In this document: positions 5,203 through 43,300 of the stretch, piece by piece
Position numbering within the stretch: position 1 is the first letter of the stretch
How the letters are laid out: the number at the start of each line of letters is the position of its first letter
IMG/VR virus record: IMGVR_UViG_3300045988_092551
Location: 1 to 64,000 of that record
DNA: 64,000 bases
Origin: a virus
Reading direction: 5' to 3' (one strand)
Notes under the pieces: model-generated
What the model saw: only the letters and a program-made list of their open reading frames with translations
The model's database searches: none
Told to the model about the DNA's origin: nothing
Translations under genes and position numbers: made by a program

Positions 5203-6381
5203 CTAACCGTTCAGATAGTCGATGACTTTTCGGTTCGCCTCGTCTATCTTCTTATTGTCGAACTGAATATAGAGCGAAGTGGTATCGTTGTCCCACTCGC
5301 TATGCCCCAGAGCCTTGCCGATAACTTCCTTCGGAATATCAATGCTCGCCGCTATGGTAGCCCAGCTTCTTCTGGCCGTATACCATATTATATCCTTGTG
5401 AAGCGGCTTGACTTCCTTCTTGACCAATGCGCCACGCTTGTTCTTCTTCATCTCGGTAGGTCCGATTCTCTTCAGGTAATCGCCTAGCTTTCTTCGGAAG
5501 CTTGATTCTTTCGTTCCATCATCCAGGATACACAGAAGGTGCTTCTTTCCCTTATACTTCCTGATGATCTCCATCGCTTCCGGCTCAACCTTGATGTCGT
5601 AGAGTCTGCCGGTCTTGTTGCGCTTGTATTGGATGCGCCCTCTCTTGATGCAGTCGGCAGGGAGTTCGAGCAGGTCGGAGAGGTTGATGCCTATCAGATA
5701 GAACCCGAGCATAAACAAGTCGCGGTACTTCTCCATAAAAGGCTCTACCGGAAAGTCGCGATACTCCCTCATCTCCTCGACACTCAGATATAGGTACTGC
5801 TGACGCTCCGTCTTGATGGAAAACTTACGGAAAGGATATTTGGTTGTAATCTCGTTGTCTATGGCCCAGTTGAACACCGTACGTATGTTTCTGAGGTCAA
5901 TGGCTATTCCGCCGCTCATACGACCTTTCAGGAGCTCATGTGCCTGGAATCTTTCGAGCCAGTCCCTGTCTATGCTGTCGAAGTTCGCATGCTCATCAAA
6001 AGCTTCAATCCTCTTCCTTGTTCTGAGAAATATTTCCTTGGTGCTGTCCTTGGCCTTGGTCTTGATGAACTCATCGATGTAGTAGAGGATATTCTTCTCT
6101 ATCGATGCAGCCCTTCCGTTGATGATGGCTTTGATTTCGTCCTTCATCCTTGCTGCCGGAAGCTCGCCGTTCATATAGATATATTCCTCCACGGACGCAA
6201 ACAGCCTTGCAAGCATCGCCGTCTTGGCTCTTGCGTTCGGAACACTCTTCGGGAAGATCATCCCGCTGAACTTGACGGTACTCGTGATGCCGGTATAGAC
6301 CTGGAATCTCTTTCCCTGATAACTGATGATAAAGAAAACCTTCAGTGACTTTCCTTCAACGTATGTCTTGATACTATTCAT
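5203..6381 (-). CDS. int: tyrosine recombinase / phage integrase
   Basis: C-terminal catalytic signature 'YTARRSWATIAAS...ALGHSEWDNDTTSLYIQ' (R...HxxR...Y). The N-terminus resembles the arm-binding domain of Bacteroides integrases. Confidence 0.9.
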   Translation of the reverse strand: MNSIKTYVEGKSLKVFFIISYQGKRFQVYTGITSTVKFSGMIFPKSVPNARAKTAMLARLFASVEEYIYMNGELPAARMKDEIKAIINGRAASIEKNILYYIDEFIKTKAKDSTKEIFLRTRKRIEAFDEHANFDSIDRDWLERFQAHELLKGRMSGGIAIDLRNIRTVFNWAIDNEITTKYPFRKFSIKTERQQYLYLSVEEMREYRDFPVEPFMEKYRDLFMLGFYLIGINLSDLLELPADCIKRGRIQYKRNKTGRLYDIKVEPEAMEIIRKYKGKKHLLCILDDGTKESSFRRKLGDYLKRIGPTEMKKNKRGALVKKEVKPLHKDIIWYTARRSWATIAASIDIPKEVIGKALGHSEWDNDTTSLYIQFDNKKIDEANRKVIDYLNG

Positions 6382-9555: not shown

Positions 9556-9628
9556 GGCTGAGTAGCTCAGTGGATAGAGCATCGGTTTCCTAAACCGTGG
9601 GCCGTGAGTTCGAACCTCACCTCAGTCA
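9556..9628 (+). tRNA. tRNA-Arg (anticodon CCT)
   Basis: Hand-folded cloverleaf. Acceptor ggctgag/ctcagtc. D arm gctc-agtggat-agagc. Anticodon loop ttCCTaa. T arm gtgag-ttcgaac-ctcac. Confidence 0.85.
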
Positions 9629-10019
9629 CACTCTTTTTAGTTCCTTTTGGTAGATTCTCTCTGAAGACGCAAAGGTAAGTCCACATACCTTATAAAGTAG
9701 GTCGTTCGGGCAGCGACAATCTTGCGTTAGATGAGAGTTTAACAAATCGGATGAAAGAAAAGATCTTTGAAATATTGATGCACAGAAAAGTATGCGTGGA
9801 AAAGAAGTAGCCGGAGAGCATCTATGGATGCCGTGACCTGGCGAAGGGACGCACGACATACGAAAATCCAGTTAGTTCTGCATCAAGTAGGCAGACGAAC
9901 TGCACCGGAACGAAGAATTGTCGGTGCAAGCACTATCGAAAACGTTGCAGTCTGGTGAGCAGGGAAAGCTCTGAAAATCCAAATAAAGTGAGAATCGCAC
10001 ATTTTATATAAAGACAAAG
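9629..10019 (+). ncRNA. candidate structured RNA between tRNA genes
   Basis: No credible ORF. Helices seen: 9672-9677/9686-9691; gtcgt/gcgac around 9700-9716; long-range 9790-9798/9852-9861 enclosing gcatc-tatg-gatgc; 7-bp tgcaccg/cggtgca (9901-9928); gagc/gctc around 9957-9971. Confidence 0.3.
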
Positions 10020-10108
10020 AGGAGACTGGTGTAATTGGAAGCACAGCGACAACTAGATGATACCGTTCTTATCGTCGTGAGATGGGGGTTCGAGTCCTCC
10101 GTCTCCTC
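10020..10108 (+). tRNA. atypical tRNA-like gene with a 16-nt expansion in the anticodon arm
   Basis: Perfect 7-bp acceptor aggagac/gtctcct, U8, D arm gtgt-aattggaa-gcac and T arm ggggg-ttcgagt-cctcc. The stem gcgac/gtcgt encloses 23 nt (aactaga + hairpin gata-ccgttct-tatc). Confidence 0.45.
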
Positions 10109-10182
10109 CAAAAAGTAATTTATTTTATATTCAAATTTATCCGATTTAAATGCAGCTCGTCTGTGAAGATAGGCTGCAACTA

Positions 10183-10253
10183 CGGGGAGATAGCTCAACG
10201 ACAGAGCGACGGCATGAAGCTAGAGTACAGACGTTTGACTCGTCACTCTCCGA
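10183..10253 (+). tRNA. degenerate tRNA-like sequence (no anticodon stem found)
   Basis: tagctcaacgacagagc D arm without GG, T arm gacg-tttgact-cgtc, imperfect acceptor pairing. Possible pseudo-tRNA. Confidence 0.3.
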
Positions 10254-10424
10254 CGACTCTTATAATTCAATTGTATTTTTATAACGTTAAGCGTTAATTG
10301 TTAGTAAGCAATATCCCTGGCGAGGGAAACATTTAAAGGGTTAATATTACTAATCGGCATCTGGTCCGTGTGGATAGGGTGCTTTTAAAAATGTGTTTTA
10401 TATGTCTACTTAATATAATGTTAA

Positions 10425-10498
10425 TGGAGAGTAGCTCAGTAGCAGAGCGCCAGGGGAAGGGTCCTTGGAGGTCGATGGTGCGAATCCATCCTCTCTTC
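10425..10498 (+). tRNA. atypical tRNA-like gene (6-bp anticodon stem or 8-9 nt loop)
   Basis: D arm gctc-agtagca-gagc (no GG). T arm gatgg-tgcgaat-ccatc. Anticodon arm ccaggg-gaagggt-ccttgg is 2 nt longer than canonical. Positions 1-72 are T-T. Confidence 0.4.
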
Positions 10499-10551
10499 CT
10501 AAAAAATTCTTTTCATTTTTCCGTAAAGTATATTTAAATTGGTTAACTGGT

Positions 10552-10622
10552 AGCCCAGTAGCTCAACTGCATAGAGCCGTGGGGCATCCGCGAGGTTGGG
10601 AGTTGGAGTCTCCCCTGGGCAC
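10552..10622 (+). tRNA. atypical tRNA-like gene (short anticodon arm, 5-nt loop)
   Basis: Acceptor gcccag/ctgggc with A-A at 1-72. D loop lacks GG. T arm gggag-ttggagt-ctccc. Anticodon arm cgtgg-ggcat-ccgcg is 3 nt shorter than canonical. Confidence 0.4.
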
Positions 10623-10725
10623 AAGAAAGTAGGTAAATTTTTATAAGTCTTTTTGAATTTTTTCTATTAGGTAGAAATGTTTTGTGTTCCATATCACTCT
10701 TGCTTGGGAAAGTAGGAGTGCATAA

Positions 10726-10797
10726 GCTGCATTAGCTCAGTTGGTCAGAGCGGTCTAAGATACTGTCAGGTCGCAGGTTCGAGTCCTGCATGTAGCT
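10726..10797 (+). tRNA. tRNA-like gene with canonical acceptor, D and T arms but an unresolved anticodon arm
   Basis: Acceptor gctgcat/atgtagc. D arm gctc-agttggtca-gagc. T arm gcagg-ttcgagt-cctgc. Only 21 nt lie between the D and T stems, and no clean 5-bp stem is found. Confidence 0.45.
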
Positions 10798-10972
10798 CGA
10801 GTGTATTTGCCATACATGTGATTTAAATTTTTAGTGGAACAAAAAGGGAGTGAGGTTGTTAAGTCATCCTCCTCCCGATTCTTCGTGTAGGCTGTTTCAA
10901 TAATGTATTCATATACCACGTGGACCACCTCTCCTGCCTTGCGTGGTAGGCTAATCGGAGAGGTTTCTATAG

Positions 10973-13968: not shown

Positions 13969-14853
13969 ATGGATATAGAGCAGTTAAACAAAACGCCTCA
14001 TAATCAGATTTGCGATTTGGCAAGAGACAGATTCATCGAGGTGTACAATCAGAAGTTCGGAGAGGGTGGAGACGTATTCTTTGAAGAGCAGAAGGCGTTC
14101 TTCAACGAAGAACTTCTCAATGGTCCGTTCAAAGGCTATCTTGAAAAGGCTCCGTCATTGAATATTCACGATGCCTTCATGAACTTGGCAATTAACGGAT
14201 TGTCTCTCGAAAAGGGAACTACGACACTCTGCTACCTCATGGGCTACAGTAACTACGACAAGAATACCAGACAAACGAATTATACGGCCAAGATCACCTA
14301 TACTGGATATGGCGAGATTCTTCTTCGCCAGCGAGCCGGTCAGATTGTTCGTTGTGACAATCCTGTCGTAGTTTACAATTGTGACGATTTTCGTTTCGGT
14401 GAACGAGACGGTCATAAGTACGTTGATTACGCAAAGACTTATCCTCGACCTGAAAATTCATACATCGTTGCTTGTTACGTGAAGATTATTCTTCCGAACA
14501 ATGCCTACGATTATTTCGTTCTTGACCGCGAAGGTATCGACCGTCTCCGTACGTACTCGGAGAAGTTCGGAGGTAAAGACCACAAAGCCAACGCTCTTTA
14601 CGGCGGAAGCTATGTCGGCAGCGATGGAAGAACGTACTTCAAGGATATTGATACAGGCTTCCTTATCTCGAAGACATGCAAGCATGCGTTCAAGGGCTAT
14701 CCTAAGCTGAAGGTTGGTCTGGGCGCTCTTTTGCAGGCCGATATCGACATGCAGACTCAGCAGAAACCGACTCAGGAAGCCTTTGGCGCCGGAGATACCG
14801 CACCGGAAGACAAAGGCGTCAAGGTAAAGGTTGACAGTGATTCACCATTTTAA
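13969..14853 (+). CDS. RecT-like single-strand annealing protein
   Basis: 'AINGLSLEKGTTTLCYLMGY...ITYTGYGEILLRQRAGQIVRCDNPVVVYNCDDFRF' fits the RecT core pattern, from memory. Confidence 0.6.
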   Translation: MDIEQLNKTPHNQICDLARDRFIEVYNQKFGEGGDVFFEEQKAFFNEELLNGPFKGYLEKAPSLNIHDAFMNLAINGLSLEKGTTTLCYLMGYSNYDKNTRQTNYTAKITYTGYGEILLRQRAGQIVRCDNPVVVYNCDDFRFGERDGHKYVDYAKTYPRPENSYIVACYVKIILPNNAYDYFVLDREGIDRLRTYSEKFGGKDHKANALYGGSYVGSDGRTYFKDIDTGFLISKTCKHAFKGYPKLKVGLGALLQADIDMQTQQKPTQEAFGAGDTAPEDKGVKVKVDSDSPF

Positions 14854-14855
14854 AA

Positions 14856-16334
14856 TTGTTATATATGGCAGAAAATACAGAATTGCAGTTGGTACAACAA
14901 CAAGCCAACAATATTACAAGACAGATTGCAACGCTAAAATCTGATACGGAAAATGCGGTGCAAGCCAACAGGAAATCTTATGAGGCATGCGTGAATGCAG
15001 GTGAGTCTCTGTTGTTTGATATTGGCGTTTCCGGAATGAACGATGCTCTTGACGAGAGAGCCGCTGAGTTTATCAAGAAAGCTAAACTGACAGAGAAAGC
15101 AATGACGGAGAAACGTAAGGGTGTTACCCAAGTGTTCGATATTGTCCGTAAGGGTTTTACTATGATGGAGAACCTTATCTCTATCAAGAACACCGATTCT
15201 GTTGTCTATAAGATTCAGGAGAAACGCAACGAGTATGCGGCATACAAGCTTGAACAGCAGCGTAAGGCTGAGCAGGAACGCCTGCGCCAGGAGCGCATCA
15301 AGGAGGCCAAGATTAAGTTGAAGACTGATACGATTGATATCTTGAACAATCTCCTTACAGAGCATTCTTCTGCTGCTATCAACTCACTTAATAATACGTT
15401 CTCTCTTCTCACCCTTGATAACAAGGATGAAGTTAAGAAACGTATTACAGAGTGTTCTGATGTTCTTGACCTCGGACATCTTTTCGTTAATAACAAGCCT
15501 TCATACTCTTCCGAAATTGATGAGAATGATGCCAAGGATATTATGAATGGAGCCTACAAGGAGGTTTCCGCTTCTCTTCTTGCATCTTATAAGCAGACCG
15601 TAAATGCTACGCGTGATGAGCTTCTTATGAAGTTTGATTCTAAGATTGCTGAACTTCTTGAAATCAAGAAGGCTGAGGAAGAGCGCAAGCGTAAGGAAGA
15701 GGAAGCCCGAAAGGCTGAAGTGGAGCGTAAGCGCAAAGAGGAGGAAGCACGTAAGGCTGCTGAGGAAGAGCGCAAGAAGCAGGAGGAGATTCAGCGTATC
15801 AAGGACGAGGAGGAGCGCAAGCGCAAGGAGGCAGAGCGGAAAGCTGCCGAGGCTGAACGCAAGGCAAAGGAAGCCGAACTGAAGGCTGCTGAGGAAGAGT
15901 GCAAACGTAAGGAAGCAGAAGCTGCCGCTGCTGAGGCTGAACGCAAGGCCAAGGAAGAGGCTATCCGTAAGGCTGATGAAGCCGCCAAGGAAGAGCAGCA
16001 GAGAAAGCTTGCTGCTGAGCAGGAGAAGCGTGATGCAGAGAATGCAGCCCAGCACGCTACTGCACAGGCTCAGTCGCTCTTTGCCCAGACTTCCGTTGGA
16101 GAAACCGGCAAGCAGAAAATCAAGGTAACAAAACGTCTTGTTGTTACCGACAAGAATGCTTGGCTCGACATCATTCAGCAGTGGTGGACGATTGAAGGCT
16201 CCAAGATGTCTCCAGACAAGCTTGCTTCCAGATTAGAGTTCATGCGCAAGGCGTGTGAGAAACACGCAAACAGCGAAGAAGAGTATATCGTTTCTCCTTA
16301 TATTAAATATGAGGATGAGGTAACGGCTAAGTAA
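14856..16334 (+). CDS. coiled-coil protein with a K/E/R/A-rich repeat region
   Basis: 492 aa. The central part is (EERKRKEEEARKAE)-like repeats. Confidence 0.5.
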   Translation: MLYMAENTELQLVQQQANNITRQIATLKSDTENAVQANRKSYEACVNAGESLLFDIGVSGMNDALDERAAEFIKKAKLTEKAMTEKRKGVTQVFDIVRKGFTMMENLISIKNTDSVVYKIQEKRNEYAAYKLEQQRKAEQERLRQERIKEAKIKLKTDTIDILNNLLTEHSSAAINSLNNTFSLLTLDNKDEVKKRITECSDVLDLGHLFVNNKPSYSSEIDENDAKDIMNGAYKEVSASLLASYKQTVNATRDELLMKFDSKIAELLEIKKAEEERKRKEEEARKAEVERKRKEEEARKAAEEERKKQEEIQRIKDEEERKRKEAERKAAEAERKAKEAELKAAEEECKRKEAEAAAAEAERKAKEEAIRKADEAAKEEQQRKLAAEQEKRDAENAAQHATAQAQSLFAQTSVGETGKQKIKVTKRLVVTDKNAWLDIIQQWWTIEGSKMSPDKLASRLEFMRKACEKHANSEEEYIVSPYIKYEDEVTAK

Positions 16335-16335
16335 T

Positions 16336-17016
16336 ATGGCGGAACAACCTTTTGACCCTTATTATTCTCGTGGTGAGGTCTCCAATTCGGACCTCACTGC
16401 GTTGAAGTTTGCCCTGAACCCGCAGCTCAACTTCGTAAAGGAAGAGGACAAGAGAAAGGCTTTCCATCTCGGAACTCTCGTTGACGCTCTCGTTACAGAA
16501 CCAGAAAAGTGCAATCATTACGCCATGACGGTTGATGACGAGAAATATACGGAGAAGGATTGGAAATGGGGTCTAGACCGGCTTGCTGTTCTGAAGAAAC
16601 AGGCAACGAAGGATAGGTTCCTTGATTTCGTCCTGAAGAATGCGGTCGGTCAGAAAACATTCATCAATCCGCACATGAAGATGGAATACCAGGGCTTCGA
16701 GTTCGAGCTTCCGGTACGCTGCAAGTTCGACTGGTGGCTCGGCGAGTTCGGCGGTGATTTGAAGACCACCGCAGCTACGTCACAGGAGCAATTTGAGGCT
16801 CAGATCGATTTCGTCGATTGGGATAGAAGCCGTGCATGGTACATGGACCTTACGCACAGTATAGACCCAAGATACGGAAACCAGGACTTTATCTTTGCGG
16901 TCTCCAAGACCAAGAAGAAAGTATTCTATAAGAAGATTGAACGTGGTGACGAGTTGTATTTGCGTGGTAGGGAGAAGGCTCTTGAATGGGCTTTCCGCAT
17001 GTGGTGTTTATTATAA
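16336..17016 (+). CDS. PD-(D/E)XK exonuclease (RecE C-terminal/DUF3799-like), likely RecT partner
   Basis: 'FHLGTLVDALVTEPEK' and 'KFDWWLGEFGGDLKTT' fit D...(D/E)xK. Located near the RecT-like gene. Confidence 0.55.
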   Translation: MAEQPFDPYYSRGEVSNSDLTALKFALNPQLNFVKEEDKRKAFHLGTLVDALVTEPEKCNHYAMTVDDEKYTEKDWKWGLDRLAVLKKQATKDRFLDFVLKNAVGQKTFINPHMKMEYQGFEFELPVRCKFDWWLGEFGGDLKTTAATSQEQFEAQIDFVDWDRSRAWYMDLTHSIDPRYGNQDFIFAVSKTKKKVFYKKIERGDELYLRGREKALEWAFRMWCLL

Positions 17017-17025
17017 TTTATTATT

Positions 17026-19476
17026 ATGTCAGATAAACCGAAATTATACGATTATCAAGAAGAGGGTGTACGCATGGAACTCGCTATGAAGCGTTGCATC
17101 AATGGCGATGATATGGGAACTGGAAAACAGCAGTCTGTTGATTGTATCGTAAAGACTCCAATTGGTGACAAAAGAATTGGAGACATTCGTATTAATGATA
17201 TTGTCTTTGGTCGAGACGGAAAACCTTACGTAGTTACGGGAGTTTTCCCACAAGGTGTTAAGCCTATGTATAAGGTAACATTCTCTGATGGTGTTAGTAC
17301 AGAAGCTGGTATGGAACATCTTTGGACTGTCCGTGATGACAACAGAAGACGTAGAGGAAATGGTTGGACTGTCAAGACAACATCTGAACTCGTTGAATTA
17401 GGGTTATTCCGAAAGGAAAACAAATGGACTAAGGCTAATGGTTCACTACCATGCAAATGGGAAATTCCGATGTGTGAAGCTGTCGAATACAACGAAAAAG
17501 ATTACCTTATACATCCGTATATTTTAGGTGTTCTAATCGGTGATGGCTCAACAAAGGATGGTGCTGTCTTTTCTAATCCAGACATGGATTGTGATATACA
17601 CGAAAGGGTTCGCGAGCTTTTACCCGATGGATATTGCATGACAGAGGATAGAAGTTCAGCATGTCCGCGCTATCGGATAACTTACCAACAAGCCCACGCA
17701 AACCCATTTATTACAGATATAAAGCGGCTTGGTCTTAACGTGTTATCAAAGGATAAGTTTATTCCAGATACTTATCTGTTTGGAAGTGTTCGGCAGAGAA
17801 AGGAGCTTTTGTATGGACTTATGGATACAGATGGTAGTGTAACTAATCATAATAGGGTTCGTTATAGTACTTATAGTGAGAAGCTTGCAATCGGAATACA
17901 GGAGTTGGTTCATTCGCTCGGAGGTCAAGCGATAGTGAGAAAAAATATAAGAAACAGAAGAGGAAAAATTGAGGTCGAGTTTGATGTAAATATCAGAACT
18001 CCATTCAATCCTTTCTATACCTACAGAAAACATAGCTCTTATCGTATTAAGTCAAAAGTGTTTCCTGTAAGGAAAATAAAGTCTGTTGATTATATAGGGG
18101 AGAAAGAAGCTGTCTGCATTATGGTTGACAACCCAGAACATACCTATCTCACTGATAGTTTCATCGTTACCCACAACACGGTTCAATCCATCGTTGCAAT
18201 TGAACGTGCAAAAGCGACTCCTTGCTTGGTTATTTGCCCTGCTGCCCTCAAAGTCAATTGGGAACGTGAAATCAAGAGATTCACAAATCTTCGTCCGCTT
18301 ATCCTTACGGATTCCGTCAATGCGACATATGGATATCATCTTACTAAGATGAACCTGTATGATGTGGTGATATGCAACTATGAATCGCTTGCAAAATACT
18401 TTGTCGTAAGCCTCGGGCCAAAGCCGTTACGGCTGAACAACTTCCTGTTTCGTGATGAACTGAAGATTATCAAGTCTGTGATTATCGACGAGTCTGCAAG
18501 AGTCAAGGATCCATCAACAAGGCAGTCTAAAATTATCATGGGATTGTGCCAGGGTAAGGAGTATATCTATGAGCTTACAGGTACACCCGTTGTCAATCAC
18601 GCAACAGACCTGGCCTGCCAGCTTGCTATCCTCGGTCGCCTGAACGACGAGTTCGGAGGTTTTGGTGAGTTCTGCAACAGGTACGGTGAGAACGAGAATC
18701 TTGAAGAGCTTAACCGGAAGATACACGAAACGTGTTACTTCCGCAGAGAAAAGAAAGATGTTCTCAAGGATTTGCCGGATCTGACCAGAACGACCATCAG
18801 TGTCGCCCTCGACCCGGAAACGCAGGAAGAGTACGATACCTGTCAGAAAGACCTGCTCACGTTCCTTCTCGAATACAAGAGCTGCTCCGAGGAAGAGGCT
18901 AGGAAAAAGCTTAGAATGAAGGCTCTTGTCAGGTTTATGAACCTTCGCTCGATATCCGGGCGAGGAAAGATGAAGGCGACGATAGAGTTCCTTCATGATA
19001 CCGAAGAGCAGATAATCGTATTTGCCGAACATCGTGATGTCGTTAGTGCAATCAAGAAAGAGTTCCCGGATGAGGTTTGCACCGTAACCGGTTCCGATAG
19101 CCAGCAGCAGAAACAATGGGCTATTGATTCTTTTCAGGCTAAGAAAAAGAGAATCATCATCTGCTCCATCAAGGCAGCCGGCGTAGGCCTTACGCTTACG
19201 GCATCTTCCAATGTGGTGTTCGTCGAGCTCCCATGGACGATGGCAGACTTGTCGCAGTGTGAATGCCGTGCCTATCGTAACGGTCAGAAGAATGCGGTTA
19301 CATCGTGGATTCTCATGGGTGCAAATACCATCGACGGCTATCTTTATAGCTTGATTATGCAGAAAGGCTCAATAGCATCAAAAGTTACAGGTGAGCAGGA
19401 CTCCGCTATCAAGGATGCAGCTTATTTTGACGAGCTGGCTGATTTGGTTTTAAAAAATTCTTTAAACAAAAAATAA
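17026..19476 (+). CDS. SNF2-family helicase containing an intein
   Basis: Motif I is split ('DDMGTGK' ... 'TVQSIVAIE'). Downstream: 'VIIDESARVKD' (motif II, DExx), 'LTGTPVVNH', and the Helicase_C region 'CSIKAAGVGLTLTASSNVVFVELPWTMADLSQCECRAYRNGQ'. Confidence 0.85.
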   Translation: MSDKPKLYDYQEEGVRMELAMKRCINGDDMGTGKQQSVDCIVKTPIGDKRIGDIRINDIVFGRDGKPYVVTGVFPQGVKPMYKVTFSDGVSTEAGMEHLWTVRDDNRRRRGNGWTVKTTSELVELGLFRKENKWTKANGSLPCKWEIPMCEAVEYNEKDYLIHPYILGVLIGDGSTKDGAVFSNPDMDCDIHERVRELLPDGYCMTEDRSSACPRYRITYQQAHANPFITDIKRLGLNVLSKDKFIPDTYLFGSVRQRKELLYGLMDTDGSVTNHNRVRYSTYSEKLAIGIQELVHSLGGQAIVRKNIRNRRGKIEVEFDVNIRTPFNPFYTYRKHSSYRIKSKVFPVRKIKSVDYIGEKEAVCIMVDNPEHTYLTDSFIVTHNTVQSIVAIERAKATPCLVICPAALKVNWEREIKRFTNLRPLILTDSVNATYGYHLTKMNLYDVVICNYESLAKYFVVSLGPKPLRLNNFLFRDELKIIKSVIIDESARVKDPSTRQSKIIMGLCQGKEYIYELTGTPVVNHATDLACQLAILGRLNDEFGGFGEFCNRYGENENLEELNRKIHETCYFRREKKDVLKDLPDLTRTTISVALDPETQEEYDTCQKDLLTFLLEYKSCSEEEARKKLRMKALVRFMNLRSISGRGKMKATIEFLHDTEEQIIVFAEHRDVVSAIKKEFPDEVCTVTGSDSQQQKQWAIDSFQAKKKRIIICSIKAAGVGLTLTASSNVVFVELPWTMADLSQCECRAYRNGQKNAVTSWILMGANTIDGYLYSLIMQKGSIASKVTGEQDSAIKDAAYFDELADLVLKNSLNKK
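17128..18177 (+). mobile_element. 350-aa intein with LAGLIDADG homing-endonuclease domain (class-3-like)
   Basis: Starts 'QQSVDCIVKTPIG' (block A-like). Also 'GMEHLW' (block B), 'LIHPYILGVLIGDGS' and 'LLYGLMDTDGSV' (LAGLIDADG), 'AVCIMVDNPEHTYLTDS' (block F), and ends 'FIVTHN' with Thr at +1. Confidence 0.75.
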
Positions 19477-19971
19477 ATGGAAATTCAAGGAAAAGTAACA
19501 AACATCTTACCGATGCGCTCTGGCGTATCTGCAAGAGGGGAATGGAAGTCACAGGAATTCGTGATTTCCACCGAGGAACAATATCCGAAAATGGTTTGCT
19601 TCCAGGTCTTCGGAGAGGATAGAATCAATAGCTTTGCTCTCCAGATTGGAGAGGCCGTAAAAGTTAGCTTCGATATCTCTGCTCACGAATATCAGGGACA
19701 CTTTTTTAATTCTGTCAACGCATGGAAAGTTGAGAAGCTCATGCCGATTGCACAGAATCCTCCTCTTAACCCTCAACAGAACGCAAATGCTCCGGCAGGC
19801 GGTTACATTCCGCCACAGACAGGTGGATATGTTCCACCACAGGCAGGCGGTAATACAATGCTTGGCGGTGGTACGCCTCCAGGTAATTCGCAAAATCTGT
19901 TTCCACCTGAACAGCAGTCAGCACAGCAGCAAGCACAGCAGCGATGGAACTCTGATGACCTTCCCTACTAG
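19477..19971 (+). CDS. DUF3127-type OB-fold single-stranded DNA-binding protein
   Basis: N-terminus 'MEIQGKVTNILPMRSGVSARGEWKSQEFVI' matches the DUF3127 pattern. It has a G/P/Q-rich linker and the acidic tip 'WNSDDLPY', like the canonical SSB 'DDDIPF'. Confidence 0.7.
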   Translation: MEIQGKVTNILPMRSGVSARGEWKSQEFVISTEEQYPKMVCFQVFGEDRINSFALQIGEAVKVSFDISAHEYQGHFFNSVNAWKVEKLMPIAQNPPLNPQQNANAPAGGYIPPQTGGYVPPQAGGNTMLGGGTPPGNSQNLFPPEQQSAQQQAQQRWNSDDLPY

Positions 19972-36024: not shown

Positions 36025-39000
36025 TTAAACAGAGCACACGGGACGGACACGATATACAGCTACCTTATCGTAATAATCAAAACGATTATTTAATACATTT
36101 AATGCCCATGCGTTGTCTATGTCTCCCTGAGTAGAAGTCCAATATAACCCACCATCAAATGTAGTAGAGCCAATAATATCAAATGCCTCATTAATTTTAG
36201 AAATATTATTACTAGCATCCTTTGCTTCGCCTAGCGACCACAGATAACCTATATTACCATTCTTGAATATATAATTGCGACAATACGCAGCAGCAGCAGC
36301 TTCTGTACCGAATCGTGCAATAATCTTTTCTGTATTCAATTTTCCTGCATAGTCTTTTATTGCATTTTCTTTATTAGTAGATGTTACAATTCCAGATACT
36401 TGAACAGAATCTCCCCAATAGTATGTCTCGTCAGAACGTGTTAAAGCAATTATAAACTTACTATTCTCTGTACCTACATATACACCTACAACCTTGCTAT
36501 TGTTGGCAGTATCCCAATTCTCAGAGAGCGTAAAGTGTCCATCTGTATCGTATATATATATACCAAGCGGTAATTTAGAATAAGTCATTATTACATTTCT
36601 ACTTGTACTAATACCTGCTGTGTAAGACTGACTTACAGGTGTAGCATATTCACTTATTCTACTTACACTTACTGTATACGTATTAACCGAAGGAATCTTG
36701 AACACAAGCGGTGTTCCCTTCCAGGTCTGCGTCTGTGTCTCTCCATTCATCGTGTTCTTGACGGTCACAACAGCACCGTTCAGCTTGCTATCTGACGATG
36801 ATACTGTACTTTTGAGCGTCACCGTCACGGTCTCATAGTAACCACCTCCACTAATCTCTCCCCACGTAGCCTTGCCGTTCGCTATGTTGTAGAGCTGATA
36901 GAATTTATATCCATGCTCGGCAGAGCTGTCCGCTACTCGGCACATATATCCTACCTTGAATGAGCGTGTCGTTCCGTTATCACTGAAGGTCAGCGTGCTT
37001 GATGTAGGAGCAGATGAGAGCGTAGGAATCACATATTCCGTATCAGTGAATTTGGCATTCGCTGGCACATTTGCATAGACGGTATGACCATTAACTTTGG
37101 AAGCATTATCCGCAATTGATGCGCTCGCTGCTTTTGCTGTTTTCTCAAGATATTTACTGTCTGCATCAGCAGTTTTAAGATATGCTGCCAAACTTTGATG
37201 AGAGGTAAGGAATCCGCTATCGTTAGTGAGTTGTGATACCTTAGTTGGTATTTGCGAAGTCTTGGCGTAGCCTGCGAGAGACTGATGTGAGGTAAGATAG
37301 TTACCCAAATCCACAGGTGTGCCACCAGTGGCAGAAATCGTCTTAGTCACACCATTAATCTTAACACTGTGAGTGTGAGTTTTATCACTCTTTCCGCTAA
37401 TATCTTGATGTGAGGTAAGATAATTACCCTTAGGCTGATACTTGGCTGCTGCGTCAGCATCTGTGATATACTTCAACCCCTTGACCCAGCTCTCAGTTGC
37501 ATATCCTGCGAGAGACTGATGTGAGGTAAGATAGTTACCCAAATCCACAGGTGTGCCACCAGTGGCAGGAATCGTCTTAATTACACCATTAATCTTAACA
37601 CTGTGAGTGTGAGTTTTATCACTCTTTCCGCTAATATCTTGATGTGAGGTAAGATAGTTACCTCTAGGCTGATACTTGGCGGCTGCGTCAGCATCGGTGA
37701 TATACTTCAACCCCTTGACCCAGCTCTCAGTTGCATATCCTGCGAGACTCTGATGTGAGGTGAGGAATGTTGCACCTTTTACAATAGCTAACGTCTTTCC
37801 GCTCTTTGTGATTGCTGTCACCGCATTGCCCGAACCGCTTACGTTTATAGCATTCACGTATCCGTCTAGCGACTGATGGGAGGTCAGATAATTGCCTATC
37901 GGCTGATAGGTCTGTCTTGCAACCTCAGTGGTAAGATACGCTGCGAGGATAGTTGCAACCTCCTTCTTGGTATAGGTATCGGTTATTCCGTATCCTCCGA
38001 GCGTAGTTGACTTATCAGCCTTCTTAGCAATAGCTTCCTCGATTGCCTTGTGAAGATTATCATCCTTTGCTAACTTGTCTGCAATCTCTTTCAGTGTATC
38101 AAGTGATTCAGGCGCTCCACCGACAAGATCAGCTATAGCCTTGCGGAATGAACCCTCAACTGTTGATGCACCGTTGATGATGTCAATGATGGCTTGCAAA
38201 GATGCCTCCTTTGCGGTCGCACGCTGCATTTCTTCCGTAAGCGATGTTCCCAGCGCATACTTGCTGTGAGTGTGTGACGTGATGTCACCAGTAAGCACTT
38301 TTTCTACCTTCTCCTTTGTAAGCTGATAGGAAGAAGAGACGGACACACCGCTGTCAATAAACTCACCCTGTGCGTCATCATATATCCACCAGTTGCCGTT
38401 TTGCACGTAAGGGGATTTTCCGTTTTCGCCCTTATCGCCCTTTACACCTTGCTCACCTTGAATACCCTGCTCACCTTGGATACCTTGTTCGCCTTGAATA
38501 CCCTGTTCACCTTGGATACCCTGCTCTCCCTTATCGCCTTTGTCACCTTTTTCGCCCTTTACATAGATATTGCTCTTTACGTAAGATTTCGAGTCCTTAT
38601 CCCATGCGTATACATAGTTGTCTTCCCCGATATATGTAGGATGGTTGGCAGTATCATTAGCATTATCAGCGGCATCAAGAGCTGCCTGCTTAGATGTAGC
38701 AAAATCAGTCTCTCGCTTTGATTCCGCAGCGACACGACCTTCCTCTGCCTTAACCCTCAATGCCTCGGCATTGGTGATGGAAGTGTTTACCTCGTTGGCT
38801 TTTCTTGCTTCACTGTTAGCGTTATCGGCAGCTGCGTTCGCTCTGTTTGCGGCATCAATGGCTGCTTGCTTCTGCTCTGTAATGTCCGTGATAGAAGCAT
38901 CTACTCTGTCAGCAGCTTCGTTTGCTTTTTGCGCTGCAACCTCCGCAGACTTCGCCTTTGCATCGGCATTGGCGGCAGATTTATTAGCCTTATCAGCCGC

Positions 39001-40044
39001 ATTGTTGGCATTTGTCGTTGCGGTGTTCGCATTCTCGGTCGCAGTATTCGCATTCTCAGTTGCGGCATTGGCGTTATCGGTTGCGGTCTTACATGCTTCG
39101 GTCTGTGTCCTGGATTCCGCAGCGGCATCGGTAGCAGGCTTCATCAGCTCTGCCTTGTCACTTTCCGTGAGGTCGGCAAAGCGGAGACGGATTCCCTTTG
39201 GAATACCGAGGTTCAGCTTGTAGACAGGGTTTCCGTCGGTATCTGTGCCCGAAGCTGATACGGAAGCCGTAGCTTCTGCGTCCTCGGCTAGGGTAGTCAC
39301 ATTGCCGATGAGAAACTGAGGGGTCTTGCCCGTAAAGCCACGGAAACCGCTCATATCTACAAGATAGGAGTAGAACTTCCGTCCTTGCTCATTAAGAGCA
39401 ACAACATAAAGTTTGGCGTTATCCTCGTCCTCCACATTAGCGGTATTGATGAGAATGAAATCATTCTCTGCAAAGGTGTTTACGTCCGTAGCATTCATCG
39501 CTGAAACGGAAGCGAATACCTTCTTAATCTGAAAAGCCTTACCAGTAAGGTTCACGTCCGTCTTGTCATAGCTATCAGTTGTCACATTCCATTTGTAATA
39601 GTAACCATCTGCGTCTACATAAGGAGGATGCGAGTAGGTAGACAATGCCTTTCTCGTTGCATCGTCCGCACTAGTTTTTGACTGTTTGAAGTCAATCTCA
39701 CGCTTCTTCTCAGCTTCCACACGGTTAGCCTCGGCAGCGCGACGCATCTTCTCAGCAGATTCACGTGACTTCTCTGCCTCCGTCACCTTATCGGAAAGCA
39801 CCTGCGCCTTGCTGATAGCCATCTGTGCTTTGTCGATAGCCTCAGACAAATCTACACCCTTATCCCACCAGTCGGTATCCGTAAGAGGATGACCGACACT
39901 TGTCATAGTGTTTGGGTCTACCCGTTTACAGATATATACAGTTACACTATCAATAACGATGTAGTCGAGCAACTGATACGCATAAGTAGGACTATAGGCT
40001 GTACCCACCTTAGTTGGGATAATTTTAATTACTTTCTTAGCCAT
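36025..40044 (-). CDS. tail fibre with collagen-like region, repeated GNYLTSHQ modules and DUF1566-like C-terminal domain
   Basis: The Gly-X-Y run 'GEKGDKGDKGEQGIQGEQGIQGEQGIQGEQGIQGEQGVKGDKGENG'. About eight 'GNYLTSHQ(S/D)' motifs. The C-terminus 'LYWTSTQ...AWALN...YRVRPV'. Confidence 0.8.
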   Translation of the reverse strand: MAKKVIKIIPTKVGTAYSPTYAYQLLDYIVIDSVTVYICKRVDPNTMTSVGHPLTDTDWWDKGVDLSEAIDKAQMAISKAQVLSDKVTEAEKSRESAEKMRRAAEANRVEAEKKREIDFKQSKTSADDATRKALSTYSHPPYVDADGYYYKWNVTTDSYDKTDVNLTGKAFQIKKVFASVSAMNATDVNTFAENDFILINTANVEDEDNAKLYVVALNEQGRKFYSYLVDMSGFRGFTGKTPQFLIGNVTTLAEDAEATASVSASGTDTDGNPVYKLNLGIPKGIRLRFADLTESDKAELMKPATDAAAESRTQTEACKTATDNANAATENANTATENANTATTNANNAADKANKSAANADAKAKSAEVAAQKANEAADRVDASITDITEQKQAAIDAANRANAAADNANSEARKANEVNTSITNAEALRVKAEEGRVAAESKRETDFATSKQAALDAADNANDTANHPTYIGEDNYVYAWDKDSKSYVKSNIYVKGEKGDKGDKGEQGIQGEQGIQGEQGIQGEQGIQGEQGVKGDKGENGKSPYVQNGNWWIYDDAQGEFIDSGVSVSSSYQLTKEKVEKVLTGDITSHTHSKYALGTSLTEEMQRATAKEASLQAIIDIINGASTVEGSFRKAIADLVGGAPESLDTLKEIADKLAKDDNLHKAIEEAIAKKADKSTTLGGYGITDTYTKKEVATILAAYLTTEVARQTYQPIGNYLTSHQSLDGYVNAINVSGSGNAVTAITKSGKTLAIVKGATFLTSHQSLAGYATESWVKGLKYITDADAAAKYQPRGNYLTSHQDISGKSDKTHTHSVKINGVIKTIPATGGTPVDLGNYLTSHQSLAGYATESWVKGLKYITDADAAAKYQPKGNYLTSHQDISGKSDKTHTHSVKINGVTKTISATGGTPVDLGNYLTSHQSLAGYAKTSQIPTKVSQLTNDSGFLTSHQSLAAYLKTADADSKYLEKTAKAASASIADNASKVNGHTVYANVPANAKFTDTEYVIPTLSSAPTSSTLTFSDNGTTRSFKVGYMCRVADSSAEHGYKFYQLYNIANGKATWGEISGGGYYETVTVTLKSTVSSSDSKLNGAVVTVKNTMNGETQTQTWKGTPLVFKIPSVNTYTVSVSRISEYATPVSQSYTAGISTSRNVIMTYSKLPLGIYIYDTDGHFTLSENWDTANNSKVVGVYVGTENSKFIIALTRSDETYYWGDSVQVSGIVTSTNKENAIKDYAGKLNTEKIIARFGTEAAAAAYCRNYIFKNGNIGYLWSLGEAKDASNNISKINEAFDIIGSTTFDGGLYWTSTQGDIDNAWALNVLNNRFDYYDKVAVYRVRPVCSV
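37271..37738. repeat. 234-bp tandem duplication inside the tail-fibre gene
   Basis: 37271-37504 and 37505-37738 differ at about 8 positions by eye. Each copy encodes a 78-aa module. Confidence 0.8.
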
Positions 40045-40395: not shown

Positions 40396-43300
40396 TTACG
40401 CATTTCTATGCGAACCGTTGAAGTAAGCATAACACCAATTCTCTCCATCAAAAATGAAATAGGTAAAAGTACCTGCTCTACCTATCTCTATTTTAGTCTG
40501 CAAACTGCCATCTGAATACATCTTCCCTGTACCGTAACCACCAGAACTGTCATACTCGATATACACGTTTGACGACACTTTAGAGTAAATCAGCAAAGTC
40601 TGACCTACAACAGGACCAGCAGGCAATTTTAGTGTAATACCACCTTTCGTAACTATCACTATACAATCAGAGCTACTTATTTGCCCGCTATAATTCATAA
40701 TTCTCAGATTAGGAGCAATAACTCCTTGTATAGCACCGTTTGTCTGCAAAGCCGTTGGTGTACCTGTAAAACCCTTGGCAATAACATTTATAGCCAACGC
40801 AGGCGAATCTTTCTTACTCTGTTCAGAATAAATATACTGCACTGGTTCGTATTGGGTATTATAAGCATAATTTGTTGGAAGATTCATGTTGTTATTCGAA
40901 CCTTTACAGACAGTTCTTGCAGCCATTCCAAACCACACGGCATTAAAATGATCCGCAGATGACTGATATGAAAACTCCGTACAGGACGTACCTACGCGAA
41001 AATAATCAGTATAAAGTGAACCACCTCGGATAAATAACGGGCAATACTGAATACCAGATACAACAGTTGCACCATTATATTCTGTACCCTTCGCTTGCAT
41101 AATATCCCCCCAATTATCATCCTTTTTAATGCTCCATATTCCGATTTTGCTATCTCCTGTGACATTAAGCTTAGTAGCTGTAATCTCCTGAGCATTGATA
41201 CCTTTAGCTACGACGTCTCCTGCATTAATGAATTTCGCATTGAGCTTTCCATTTTGGAACATAGCAGCTTCGTCATAGCCCTCAGAAGGATTGGCTTTCG
41301 GGGTTTTTACCTGTACTTTGTTTCCGTACAAGGTGACTTGTTCGCTCGTAATCTCTATACCAGCCTTCTTCAAGCTCGCCTTGTCAACCAAATCAGTTTT
41401 TCGCTCGGTGTACTCGGTCATGGTTGCACCTACCTCCAACTTAGGTTGGCAGACATATACATCATTACCGTTATTGCATCGTATAAGCAGATTCTCGGGA
41501 AGAGGGTGTTCGCTTGATGTATTAAGATGATAGTGTACCCAATAGCGTTTCCATTCGTTTGTTAGCTTGAAATCAACATTGCCATCTGTCGATACGGCAT
41601 CATGTTTATTGTTAGAACTCTCTACAAAGAAACGAGGTGTTCCATCCTTCCAAAGATAAGTACTAACCACACCCGTGCCCTTAGCGAGGAAAGAGAACAT
41701 ATAGTCTTGCCCATCATTGATGCGCCCGACCATATTCCATTGTAGCATTTCAATATACGTACTTGTTGTGTTGTTAGAATGAGCAACGGCATAAGCGTAT
41801 TCGTAACCTTCATTGATAATTTCGCTACTCTCTATTTTAAGATTACCACTCTTTTCCAATGACCTTGTATTATCAAGGATGTTGCCGCCAACATAATCGT
41901 AATCGTTATCCGATAACGTCCAACCGCCATACGTATCGCCCTCTTCCATCATAGGCTTACAGATATAAGCGTGGCATGTAGGATAATCAGTCGCACCAGT
42001 TGCGTCAGTTACCTTTGGAACGTTCTTATTATTGCTCCAGAAGTTCACGGCTAAGAATTCGGTTGCTTTTGCGTTGTTGGTATCAAGCACACAACTAATT
42101 TTCTCCCACTTATTCTTTTCGTGAACCTTGAAAGCAACACTTATCGCACTATCCACATTGTCTCTGCTCTGCTGATTGATGCTCTTCATGTAGAGGCATT
42201 CGATGTTAAACGTCAAGTCTAAGTTGTCGCTCTTTATCCAACATGAAAATACATACTTCTTACCCTTGACGATAGGAATGTTTGTAACAACACTATTTCC
42301 CTGTGTCGAATCCCAAAAAGCACCGATGTAGTTGCCCTCTCCTGTTCCCGAATACTTATCCGAGCTGTAAATGCAGTTTACGCCATCAACGCCTGTATTC
42401 TTCTCGATGCGAGCTACTGAATTTATAAACACGCTGTCCTGATTGCGGAATGCGCTATTCACCAAGAGATTGCGCCTTCCAATAGACTTTTCGCTTACAG
42501 AGAGGGAGATTTCTCTTGCCGTCTGTATGATAGAGCTTTTCCACTCCTTTAGTTCATTGCCTGTCGGCAAACCATCCAGCTTACCCGACATATCATTCAC
42601 CTTACCCGATATTTCAGAATACTGAGAAGTCAAAGTCTTATTATTGCTATACACATGGGCTACAAACTTGGTGATATTAACCTGGAATTTTACATAAGCG
42701 TAGTGTAATCCACCATGTTCGTCTGTAATCTGAACCTGAGCATATCCATTCTGAGCGGGCATTGTAATCCCGTCTACAGTAACATTAGTTATATTCTGGA
42801 TAATAACCATGTTCTTTTTTTGACCAGGACCAGGAGTGCAATTTAAATGATGGTTGTTGGTAAGCGAAAAACCACAATTGTTCGTTACATCCTGACCGTT
42901 ACGATAACATTTAATCTCAGCCGACTGCTTGGGAGTGAGAAGTTTCCCTTCATCGTTAGTATCAAATATAACCACCTCTGGAATTATCTGATATTCGAAC
43001 TCACTGCCGATAGTATAATTACCTATAGCTAATTGCTCGTCACCGTCTTTCTGCTTCAGAATAATATCAATAGTCTTAGCTGACGGGAAAGCCAAAAGGT
43101 CAATATAGCTATCACTCATCACGTCACTGTCCTTATACGCAAGATATTCTCCGTTAATGTATACATTACACGTCAGCGTATTATTCCACTTGCTAATAAG
43201 GTGTGTTATATTAGTTTTCTCCTGTATCTTATGAACATAGATATAGACTTTTTTCTCCTGCAACAAGAAATCTACAGTATAAGTGACTGGGGAAACTCCA

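Follow-up and report, generated by a model that had tools for sequence, protein, structure and literature searches.

Class 3 inteins are defined by the lack of a required N-terminal nucleophile and by a Trp-Cys-Thr (WCT) triplet at positions B:12, F:4, and G:5 of the conserved intein blocks, and the first residue after the intein (+1) is usually Thr or Ser (PMC2807308, PMC3196547, PMC5050341) and rarely Cys (Tori et al. 2010; Tori & Perler 2011). The mechanism and definition of the class have been treated in several papers (PMC2807308, PMC3196547, PMC5222942, PMC5050341). WCT inteins have been identified in DnaB, RecG, SNF2, and terminase proteins, most of them in P-loops (PMC2807308), in which the position between Lys and Thr is the "classic" insertion site (PMC5050341). 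Class 3 inteins are probably of phage origin (PMC3196547, PMC4031507), and inteins are also known in the crAss-like phages of Bacteroidota (PMC7886860). Here, we describe an insert of 350 codons in a helicase gene of the virus record IMGVR_UViG_3300045988_092551 in IMG/VR, of which positions 1 to 64,000 were analyzed, hereafter referred to as the window. The insert at positions 17128-18177 is very probably a class 3 intein with a LAGLIDADG homing endonuclease, and it interrupts Walker A of an SNF2 helicase that is encoded by a temperate phage of Segatella copri.

The founding member of the class is the intein of mycobacteriophage Bethlehem (PMC2807308, PMC5050341), which is 341 amino acids long, contains a central LAGLIDADG domain, and resides in a P-loop NTPase, the large subunit of the terminase. 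A second validated class 3 intein of phage origin is found in Catera gp206 (cited in PMC3196547). The intein in the Snf2 protein of Deinococcus radiodurans also belongs to class 3, and its block F branched intermediate has been detected experimentally, according to the title of the original study (Brace et al. 2010, Protein Sci 19:1525) and to papers that cite it (PMC3196547, PMC4031507). Solved structures are available for the mycobacterial DnaB-1 mini-inteins, which have no endonuclease, and for PI-SceI from the yeast VMA1 protein, the archetype of class 1 inteins that bear a LAGLIDADG endonuclease.

An In-Frame Insert in the Walker A Motif of an SNF2 Helicase

The open reading frame (ORF) at 17026-19476 on the plus strand encodes a protein of 816 amino acids, and the translation reads as an SNF2 helicase split by the insert. 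The N-side junction of the precursor reads ...CINGDDMGTGK34/Q35QSVDCIVKTPIGDKRIGDI and the C-side junction reads YLTDSFIVTHN384/T385VQSIVAIERAK, where the slash marks the boundary, here and below. The insert is in frame and spans exactly 350 codons between Lys34 and Thr385, with Gln35 starting at 17128 and Asn384 ending at 18177, and both the coordinates and the junction strings agree with those given in an earlier note on this DNA. The gene is divided as follows:

17026..17127, plus strand: N-extein, helicase residues 1-34, which closes with motif I (Walker A), DDMGTGK34, and is contiguous with the C-extein in alleles L001, L009, L010, and L011
17128..18177, plus strand: complete putative intein, 350 amino acids from Gln1 to Asn350, exactly absent from related alleles and supported by matches to Pfam, the Protein Data Bank (PDB), the intein family, the Bethlehem and Catera inteins, and by fold
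18178..19476, plus strand: C-extein, residues 385-816 and the stop codon, with Pfam matches to SNF2-rel_dom and Helicase_C

When the exteins were joined, a protein of 466 amino acids with the junction GTGK-T was obtained. In the whole 816 amino acid protein, the Pfam domain SNF2-rel_dom was matched with an E-value of 5e-22 (78.8 bits) over profile positions 52-282 and Helicase_C with 8e-16. In the joined exteins, the match to SNF2-rel_dom improved to 4.8e-28 (98.5 bits) and covered profile positions 1-282, and the match to Helicase_C was 3.4e-16. The host protein thus contains an SNF2-related ATPase domain, a Helicase_C domain, and, after joining, a Walker A motif of the type GxGKT, as expected for a member of the SNF2 family. 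These results, together with the natural intein-less alleles, bear out the proposal in the earlier note that the insert interrupts the P-loop of an SNF2 helicase and that its removal recreates motif I. The codon for the +1 residue (18178-18180) encodes the Walker A Thr, which is also the predicted acceptor nucleophile.

In the intein-less alleles from related phages and prophages (L001, L009, L010, and L011), exactly 1050 bases were absent and the protein sequence continued as DDMGTGK/TVQSI, with alignments that ended at 17126 and resumed at 18175. The empty site reads GGAACCGGTAAG/ACGGTTCAGTC, also written GGAACCGGTAAG/ACGGTTCAG, and the flanks of these alleles were about 90% to 96% identical to the window at the DNA level on both sides. 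The L001 allele is a fragment from human faeces (GenBank MT838381.1), in which window positions 16975-17126 and 18175-19554 are continuous, with about 93% identity on both sides. The L010 allele is part of a prophage in the complete chromosome of S. copri HDD04 (NZ_CP152484), which has an empty site at around 852,965-853,200, and two contigs from metagenome-assembled genomes are likewise empty at the site of the insert. The host of the phage is thus a Bacteroidota species, Segatella (Prevotella) copri.

The close homologs of the joined exteins, which are about 450 to 480 amino acids long and 87% to 99% identical, contain no insert. They include near-identical intein-less proteins such as P0218, with 99% identity, and P0242, which by its name is from Prevotella copri. 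The window protein belongs to a 90%-identity cluster of 2559 members that also contains the short intein-less forms, one of which bears the name of a Prevotella copri helicase and is present on 108 contigs. The same cluster also holds 2 additional variants with an intein, which are 829 and 800 amino acids long, and a protein identical to the window protein was encoded on 5 contigs from several samples. Because both empty alleles and a recurrent filled protein were identified, the insert is real rather than an assembly artefact and is polymorphic in the natural phage population. Its boundaries and its presence/absence polymorphism are confirmed by these alleles.

The Insert Has the Sequence Signature of Class 3 Inteins

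The window sequence was aligned with 107 full-length relatives, resulting in a total of 108 rows to which all residue counts refer. The features of the predicted splicing domain, which is of the Hint type and divided into 2 halves, are:

17128..17337, plus strand: N-terminal Hint half, intein residues 1-70, blocks A and B; aligns with the gp41-1, MchDnaB1, and MsmDnaB1 inteins, with beta strands in the structural model at residues 7-69
17317-17319, plus strand: His64 (B:10), kept in 108 of 108 rows
17323-17325, plus strand: Trp66 (B:12), kept in 106 of 108 rows
18058..18177, plus strand: C-terminal Hint half, residues about 311-350, blocks F and G; aligns with the Bethlehem intein and with VRCVEVDNPAHLYL...THN of MchDnaB1
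18115-18117, plus strand: Cys330 (F:4), the proposed initiating nucleophile, in E-A-V-C-I-M-V, kept in 108 of 108 rows
18169-18177, plus strand: Thr348 (G:5)-His349-Asn350, each kept in 108 of 108 rows, followed by Thr+1

The first position of the intein was variable and occupied by Ala in 75 rows, Ser in 13, Glu in 8, Asp in 4, Cys in 3, Gln in 2, Pro in 2, and Gly in 1. The window sequence starts with Gln1, and the insert therefore has no N-terminal nucleophile. The +1 residue was Thr in 101 rows, including Thr385 of the window protein, and Ser in the remaining 7. A variable first position in combination with an invariant internal Cys, as seen across the alignment, is the pattern of class 3 inteins.

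Several hallmarks of an intein are present in the insert, namely a host sequence that is restored by removal, a His at B:10, a C-terminal His-Asn, a Ser, Thr, or Cys at +1, and a predicted Hint fold. So are sequence features that characterize class 3, that is, a non-nucleophilic first residue, the WCT triplet, and a Thr at +1. By every sequence criterion, the insert is a predicted class 3 intein. This is also how it was interpreted in the earlier note, in which the strings EHLW and AVCIMVDN, a class 3-like WCT pattern, Gln1, and Thr+1 had been pointed out; both strings are present, the triplet occupies the canonical positions, and its residues are invariant or nearly so in the family. Pairwise matches would also, indirectly, place the insert in the monophyletic class 3 clade.

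The similarity of the insert to inteins exceeds by a wide margin what chance would produce. A hidden Markov model (HMM) of the family matched the ORF with 426 bits and an E-value of 3e-129, a score that is partly circular since the model was built from the 107 relatives and the window sequence itself. No second copy of the intein was found when all six frames of the window were searched with this HMM. In the search against NCBIfam, the models for intein-containing DnaB, GyrA, and RecA proteins were matched only below their thresholds. A group I intron and a free-standing homing endonuclease gene were considered as alternative identities of the insert and ruled out, since the reading frame runs through the insert, which contains neither a stop codon nor a start signal of its own and has a Hint half on either side.

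Some variation was observed at positions 60 and 61 of the intein (window 17305-17310). A Cys was present at position 60 in 92 of the 108 rows, followed by Cys or Ser at position 61, and Ala-Gly is found instead in the window intein and in P0202, to which it is most closely related.

The Endonuclease Domain and the Predicted Fold

The segment between the 2 Hint halves is a predicted LAGLIDADG endonuclease domain:

17338..18057, plus strand: central insertion, intein residues about 71-310, identified by Pfam LAGLIDADG_3, by the alignment to PI-SceI, and by fold
17542-17544, plus strand: Asp139 in motif 1, YILGVLIGDG, which pairs with YLLGLWIGDG in PI-SceI
17755-17757, plus strand: Lys210 in KFIP, which pairs with the lysine of KNIP in PI-SceI
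17830-17832, plus strand: Asp235 in motif 2, LLYGLMDTDG, which pairs with LAGLIDSDG in PI-SceI

The Pfam profile LAGLIDADG_3 was matched with an E-value of 1.5e-7 and 32 bits, which is above the cut-off of 22.5 bits. The alignment to PI-SceI paired both motifs as well as the lysine, and the putative catalytic residues Asp139, Asp235, and Lys210 are therefore in place, each of them at least 90% conserved in the family. The 2 LAGLIDADG motifs noted earlier, LIHPYILGVLIGDGS and LLYGLMDTDGSV, are both present. Each motif ends in a catalytic acidic residue, and the domain has a predicted fold like those of PI-SceI and I-DmoI, as expected for endonucleases with 2 LAGLIDADG motifs, which adopt an alpha-beta-beta-alpha-beta-beta-alpha fold as a pseudo-dimer.

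The structure of the intein was modeled with AlphaFold based on 82 aligned sequences, resulting in a mean predicted local distance difference test (pLDDT) value of 96.3 and a predicted template modeling (pTM) score of 0.93. In searches with Foldseek, the model matched PI-SceI and other endonuclease-bearing inteins with query template modeling (TM) scores of 0.72 to 0.74. The class 3 inteins MchDnaB1 and MsmDnaB1 ranked first among the mini-inteins, with target TM scores of 0.82 to 0.83, and the central domain also matched I-DmoI. A sequence search of the PDB yielded intein matches with E-values down to 1.5e-9. The best were to the gp41-1 intein, including the WCT-grafted 6RIZ, to the class 3 DnaB-1 inteins from Mycobacterium chimaera (6RIX and 6RIY) and M. 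smegmatis (6BS8), and, for the central part, to PI-SceI; the identities of entries 6RIZ, 6RIX, 6RIY, and 6BS8 are given in PMC7664689. In these alignments, EHLW was paired with AHQW, AVCIMVDNPEHTYL with VRCVEVDNPAHLYL, and THN with THN at the C-terminal end.

Comparison with Known Inteins

The Bethlehem intein was matched over window intein residues 3-350 with an E-value of 1e-24 in a tblastn search, and all catalytic residues were paired, a comparison that had been proposed in the earlier note. Both elements are phage-encoded, are similar in length, and have a central LAGLIDADG domain and a P-loop NTPase as host protein. Pro1 in the Bethlehem intein corresponds to Gln1 in the window intein, and His65, Trp67, Cys320, Thr339-His340-Asn341, and Thr+1 are located opposite His64, Trp66, Cys330, Thr348-His349-Asn350, and Thr+1. 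However, the sequence identity is only 26%, the Bethlehem host protein is a terminase large subunit rather than an SNF2 helicase, and the phage infects Actinobacteria. The insertion sites also differ, since the Bethlehem intein is inserted at site TerL1-c, after a Gln in a less conserved ATPase region, whereas the window intein is inserted at GK/T in Walker A.

The Bethlehem class 3 intein, also known by the name "MP-Be DnaB", was located in the left genome arm, where it resides in the terminase (gp11), which agrees with PMC5050341. The name suggests a helicase gene, and the right arm (30-52 kb) was also considered as its location, but no match was found there. Another intein-like insert, CSWTNARAV...IHLTGN/S, was observed in Bethlehem gp52, which is annotated as a phosphoesterase (L007, 7578-9296). 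It is unrelated to the window intein at the BLAST level and probably represents the "gp51 RDF" intein of PMC5050341 under another gene numbering. This gp52 intein has an apparent Cys1, as in class 1, and produced no match to the window intein.

The Catera gp206 intein was matched end to end with an E-value of 2e-24 and 28% identity (tblastn), and no other match was obtained in the 49-kb Catera segment that was searched. It contains a LAGLIDADG domain, and the motifs AEHLW, VRCITV, and VPTHN/T correspond to MEHLW, AVCIMV, and VTHN/T in the window intein, but the host protein and the host phylum are different. The D. radiodurans Snf2 intein is likewise described as a class 3 intein hosted by an SNF2-family protein; it is located on a bacterial chromosome rather than in a Bacteroidota phage.

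Among proteins with solved structures, the best matches to the Hint domain were the mycobacterial DnaB-1 mini-inteins Msm DnaBi1 (6BS8) and MchDnaB1 (6RIX/6RIY), in which the HxW motif, the block F Cys, and the terminal THN are all paired with those in the window intein. The MsmDnaB1 intein is likewise preceded by the Gly-Lys of DnaB, its host protein, as seen in the sequence of a cloning primer (PMC7664689). In contrast to these inteins, the window intein contains a predicted endonuclease, and Cys48, the redox partner in Msm DnaBi1, appears to correspond to Met47, as judged via the alignment to MchDnaB1. PI-SceI was the best whole-chain match in fold, and its LAGLIDADG motifs and catalytic Lys align with those of the window intein. 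Unlike the latter, however, PI-SceI is eukaryotic and of class 1, with Cys1 as the nucleophile, an Asp-type block F, and Cys+1, and the identity is only 17% to 20%.

Distribution of the Intein Family

An exhaustive search of 1.84 billion cluster representatives identified 18,313 proteins with E-values of at most 1e-3, of which 13,115 had E-values of at most 1e-10 and 4,940 had E-values of at most 1e-30. Some of the representatives (such as P0316, P0267, and P0334) matched the family in 2 to 5 separate stretches and are candidate hosts of multiple inteins, with sizes of 900 to 2200 amino acids. The relatives from the first homology search were hosted by SNF2, PhoH, AAA_24, IstB-like, and PDDEXK proteins. 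The insertion site was located after the Walker A Lys in 82 of the 108 rows and after an Arg in 22, as in the PhoH motif MRGR/T.

A tblastn search of GenBank phages produced matches in 846 records, and in 809 of them the match extended over 80% or more of the query. These included 299 mycobacteriophages and many phages of Salmonella, Vibrio, Klebsiella, and Enterococcus. The best match was to the terminase of Bacteroides phage BS-TP3, with 43% identity. The element had earlier been presented as an apparent novelty for helicases of Bacteroidota phages. The assignment to a Bacteroidota phage was correct, as seen from the S. copri prophage allele, but the novelty was overstated, since SNF2 proteins and P-loops have already been published as locations of class 3 inteins, as has their origin in phages (PMC2807308, PMC3196547, PMC5050341). 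Nor are inteins new to Bacteroidota phages (PMC7886860), and the closest cultured relative that was identified resides in a Bacteroides phage terminase. The chemistry, the P-loop site, the SNF2 hosts, and the phage origin have thus all been described, and the element joins a large described family.

More distantly related helicases, with about 60% identity in the exteins, also contain inteins at the same GK/T site. The intein in P0202 is of the same lineage, being 64% identical to the window intein and starting with QQSVDC. The helicases P0200 and P0205 contain inteins of a different class 3 lineage at the identical site, with the start EQPY, the motifs HHLW or KHLW and QRCI, and the end VTHN/T, which suggests repeated independent invasion of a single helicase site.

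Sequence Divergence and Probable Mobility

The G+C content at third codon positions (GC3) was lower in the intein, at 0.32, than in the exteins, at 0.52, and the intein is thus foreign in composition. The flanks of the insert also differed from the intein-less alleles in 2 segments:

17052..17127, plus strand: upstream flank with raised synonymous divergence, a possible co-conversion tract, in which the last 75 nt differ from L010 by 11 mismatches
18178..18430, plus strand: downstream flank with mostly synonymous divergence, a possible co-conversion tract, in which the 75-nt segments of the first 225 nt contain 13, 15, and 8 mismatches and those thereafter 0 to 6

As a baseline for the upstream flank, L010 differed from the window by 2.8 mismatches per 75 nt on average across the compared 3.1 kb, and 3% of the 75-nt segments reached 11. 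All 11 changed codons in the upstream tract were synonymous. Over the first 300 nt downstream, 35 of the 38 changed codons were synonymous and 3 were not, and 2 of the intein-less alleles differed from each other by only 2 to 3 mismatches per 75 nt in the region of the downstream tract. It is possible that these tracts represent co-conversion during homing from a diverged donor. The P0202 locus (L002) was examined as the donor and rejected, as no more than 3 of the 11 and 6 of the 40 differing flank positions were shared between it and the window. The identity of 64% between the inteins compared to 60% between the exteins in the P0202 comparison is uninformative with regard to horizontal transfer.

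A second intein-bearing allele, P0245, was identified at loci L017-L019. Its intein is about 97% identical to the window intein at the protein level. The flanks of P0245 are closer to the intein-less alleles than the window flanks are and show a different pattern. The synonymous divergence (dS) between the window and P0245 was 0.08 for the intein and 0.29 for the exteins, and the ratio of nonsynonymous to synonymous divergence (omega) was 0.14 for the intein (Hint part, 0.075; endonuclease part, 0.18), compared to 0.025 for the exteins. The estimate for the intein is derived from 17 synonymous and 9 nonsynonymous changes. Given the omega value of the intein and its lower dS, the intein appears to be under purifying selection and to have been shared more recently than the host gene. 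Taken together, the GC3 value, the flank tracts, the polymorphism within a single 90%-identity cluster, and the omega values indicate that the element is a functional intein that would have been acquired by homing.

Proposed Mechanism and Alternative Explanations

The splicing chemistry, including the branched intermediate at Cys330, is inferred from homology to the Bethlehem, Catera, and mycobacterial DnaB inteins. The P-loop is split in the 816 amino acid precursor, which should be dead as an ATPase. Splicing would start with an attack by Cys330, aided by His64 and Trp66, on the bond between Lys34 and Gln35, resulting in a thioester branched intermediate, after which the N-extein would be moved to the hydroxyl group of Thr+1 (Thr385). 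Asn350 would then cyclize with the help of His349, thereby releasing the intein of 350 amino acids, and an O-to-N acyl shift would yield the 466 amino acid helicase with an intact GTGKT motif. The free intein or the precursor may in turn cut intein-less helicase alleles of related phages and prophages at the sequence coding for GK/T, during co-infection or infection of lysogens, and recombinational repair would copy the intein along with some of the flanks. The endonuclease activity and the homing are suggested by the intact catalytic residues and the population pattern. Overall, we consider the element to be intact, probably active, and probably mobile, as judged from its sequence and its distribution among alleles.

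A few observations weigh against this interpretation. Two profiles for the splicing domain were matched only partially and below their cut-offs, namely Hom_end_hint in Pfam (28.9 bits, 1.4e-6, cut-off 32.1) and intein_Cterm TIGR01443 in NCBIfam (11.7 bits, cut-off 15.6), so that the profile search proposed in the earlier note was borne out for LAGLIDADG but not for these 2 Hint models. The curated Hint profiles do not define an intein, although the shortfall should be recorded. At the 2 positions just ahead of the block B His that are Ala60-Gly61 in the window intein, Cys-Cys or Cys-Ser is found in most of the relatives. Furthermore, the selection estimate is based on only 26 substitutions, and the divergent flank tracts could represent ordinary phage mosaicism, since about 3% of the upstream 75-nt segments were equally divergent.

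If the shortfall in the Hint models reflected decay, the insert could be a degenerate remnant that no longer splices and has left the helicase either permanently broken or working with a large inserted domain. There is a documented precedent in the class 3-like intein Arth_1007 in Arthrobacter FB24, which is a pseudogene (PMC3196547). However, Arth_1007 is without both His B:10 and Cys F:4, whereas every catalytic residue is retained in the window intein. The frame is open over 350 codons, the omega value is 0.14, and the identical protein was found in several samples. An insert between the Lys and Thr of Walker A would also ruin a helicase that is under strong constraint (extein omega 0.025), and we consider this explanation to be extremely unlikely. 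Equally improbable is splicing without the block F branch, either by a direct attack of Thr+1 in a manner similar to class 2 inteins, which is chemically possible (PMC4031507), or from Cys6 in QQSVDC as the true N-terminus of a class 1-like intein with shifted boundaries. The known class 2 inteins are all KlbA orthologs with Cys+1 and Ser at G:6 and without the WCT triplet (PMC4031507, PMC2807308), and in the Bethlehem intein, a homolog of the window intein, the block F Cys is strictly essential (PMC2807308). Cys6 is not the true N-terminus, because QQSVD is absent from the empty alleles, which set the N-boundary at Gln35 such that splicing from Cys40 would leave QQSVD in the P-loop, and because the position is mostly Ser or Ala in the relatives (Ser in 51 rows, Ala in 27, Thr in 12, Glu in 8, Cys in 7, and Asn in 3) and thus not conserved as a nucleophile.

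Less easily dismissed, albeit still unlikely, is that the intein is competent for splicing while its endonuclease has become inactive, in which case inheritance would be only vertical or by general recombination. Decayed endonucleases are common among inteins as part of the homing cycle, and conservation is weaker in the endonuclease domain than in the Hint halves, as seen in the omega values of 0.18 and 0.075, respectively, and in that the differences from P0202 are found mostly in the central region. However, an omega value of 0.18 still signifies constraint, and Asp139, Lys210, and Asp235 are intact along with both LAGLIDADG helices. The polymorphism in a single cluster, the lower dS in the intein than in the exteins, and the location of the divergent tracts next to the junctions also argue against an inactive endonuclease. 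A class 3 intein that probably still encodes an active homing endonuclease is thus the explanation that we favor.

Genomic Context

The window represents a temperate-phage genome or a prophage, in which the following genes were identified:

5203-6381: integrase
9556-10798: tRNA cluster
13969-14853: RecT-like protein
16336-17016: exonuclease VIII-like/DUF3799 protein
17026-19476, plus strand: SNF2 helicase
19477-19971: SSB
36025-40044: tail protein, a tail-protein-like ORF of 1339 amino acids
57845-59026: major head protein
60713-62356: terminase large subunit

Because of its neighbors, the interrupted helicase gene is considered to belong to the recombination/replication module of the phage. 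Within this region, the ORF at 14856-16334 encodes a protein of 492 amino acids with a long repetitive stretch rich in Glu, Lys, Arg, and Ala (EERKRKEEEARKAE...), located between the genes for the RecT-like and the exonuclease VIII-like/DUF3799 proteins and with no Pfam match on record. An ENA contig (L006) was identical to the window through the helicase and SSB region except for base 16448 and diverged from 20022 on, which suggests module exchange just downstream of the gene for SSB.

The tRNA cluster at 9556-10798 contained 4 tRNAs according to ARAGORN, Arg-CCT, Ser-ACT, Pro-AGG, and Leu-AAG, 3 of which have A as the first anticodon base, and with the anticodon at an unusual position, 32 or 33. 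The Rfam tRNA model supported only those at 9556-9628 and 10726-10797, and the other 2 may be false predictions or degenerate genes. On the minus strand, at 40396-47592 and 48215-54520, 2 very large ORFs that encode 2398 and 2101 amino acids were located upstream of the tail-protein-like ORF.

Implications

The current understanding of inteins is not changed by this element, but the annotation of the gene is affected. The 816 amino acid ORF should be annotated as a 466 amino acid SNF2 helicase and a 350 amino acid putative class 3 intein with an endonuclease, rather than as a novel large helicase. The intein, which is predicted to be well folded and has Gln1 and Thr+1, could be added to the toolbox of class 3 inteins.

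In the mycobacterial class 3 intein DnaBi1, splicing via the block F cysteine is blocked by oxidants and zinc. By analogy, the intein might serve as a redox- or metal-gated post-translational switch on a replication/recombination helicase of a phage in the strictly anaerobic Segatella host, although we consider this to be very unlikely. Cys60 and the equivalent of DnaBi1 Cys48 are missing here, so that regulation of this kind would not be the same as the disulfide trap already published. If such a switch did operate, prophage induction or replication would be coupled to the physiology of the host.

For a phage lineage that is abundant in the human gut and hosted by Segatella (Prevotella) copri, the insert provides a clean natural case of presence/absence polymorphism. 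With an empty-site allele and 2 filled alleles at hand, homing is directly testable.

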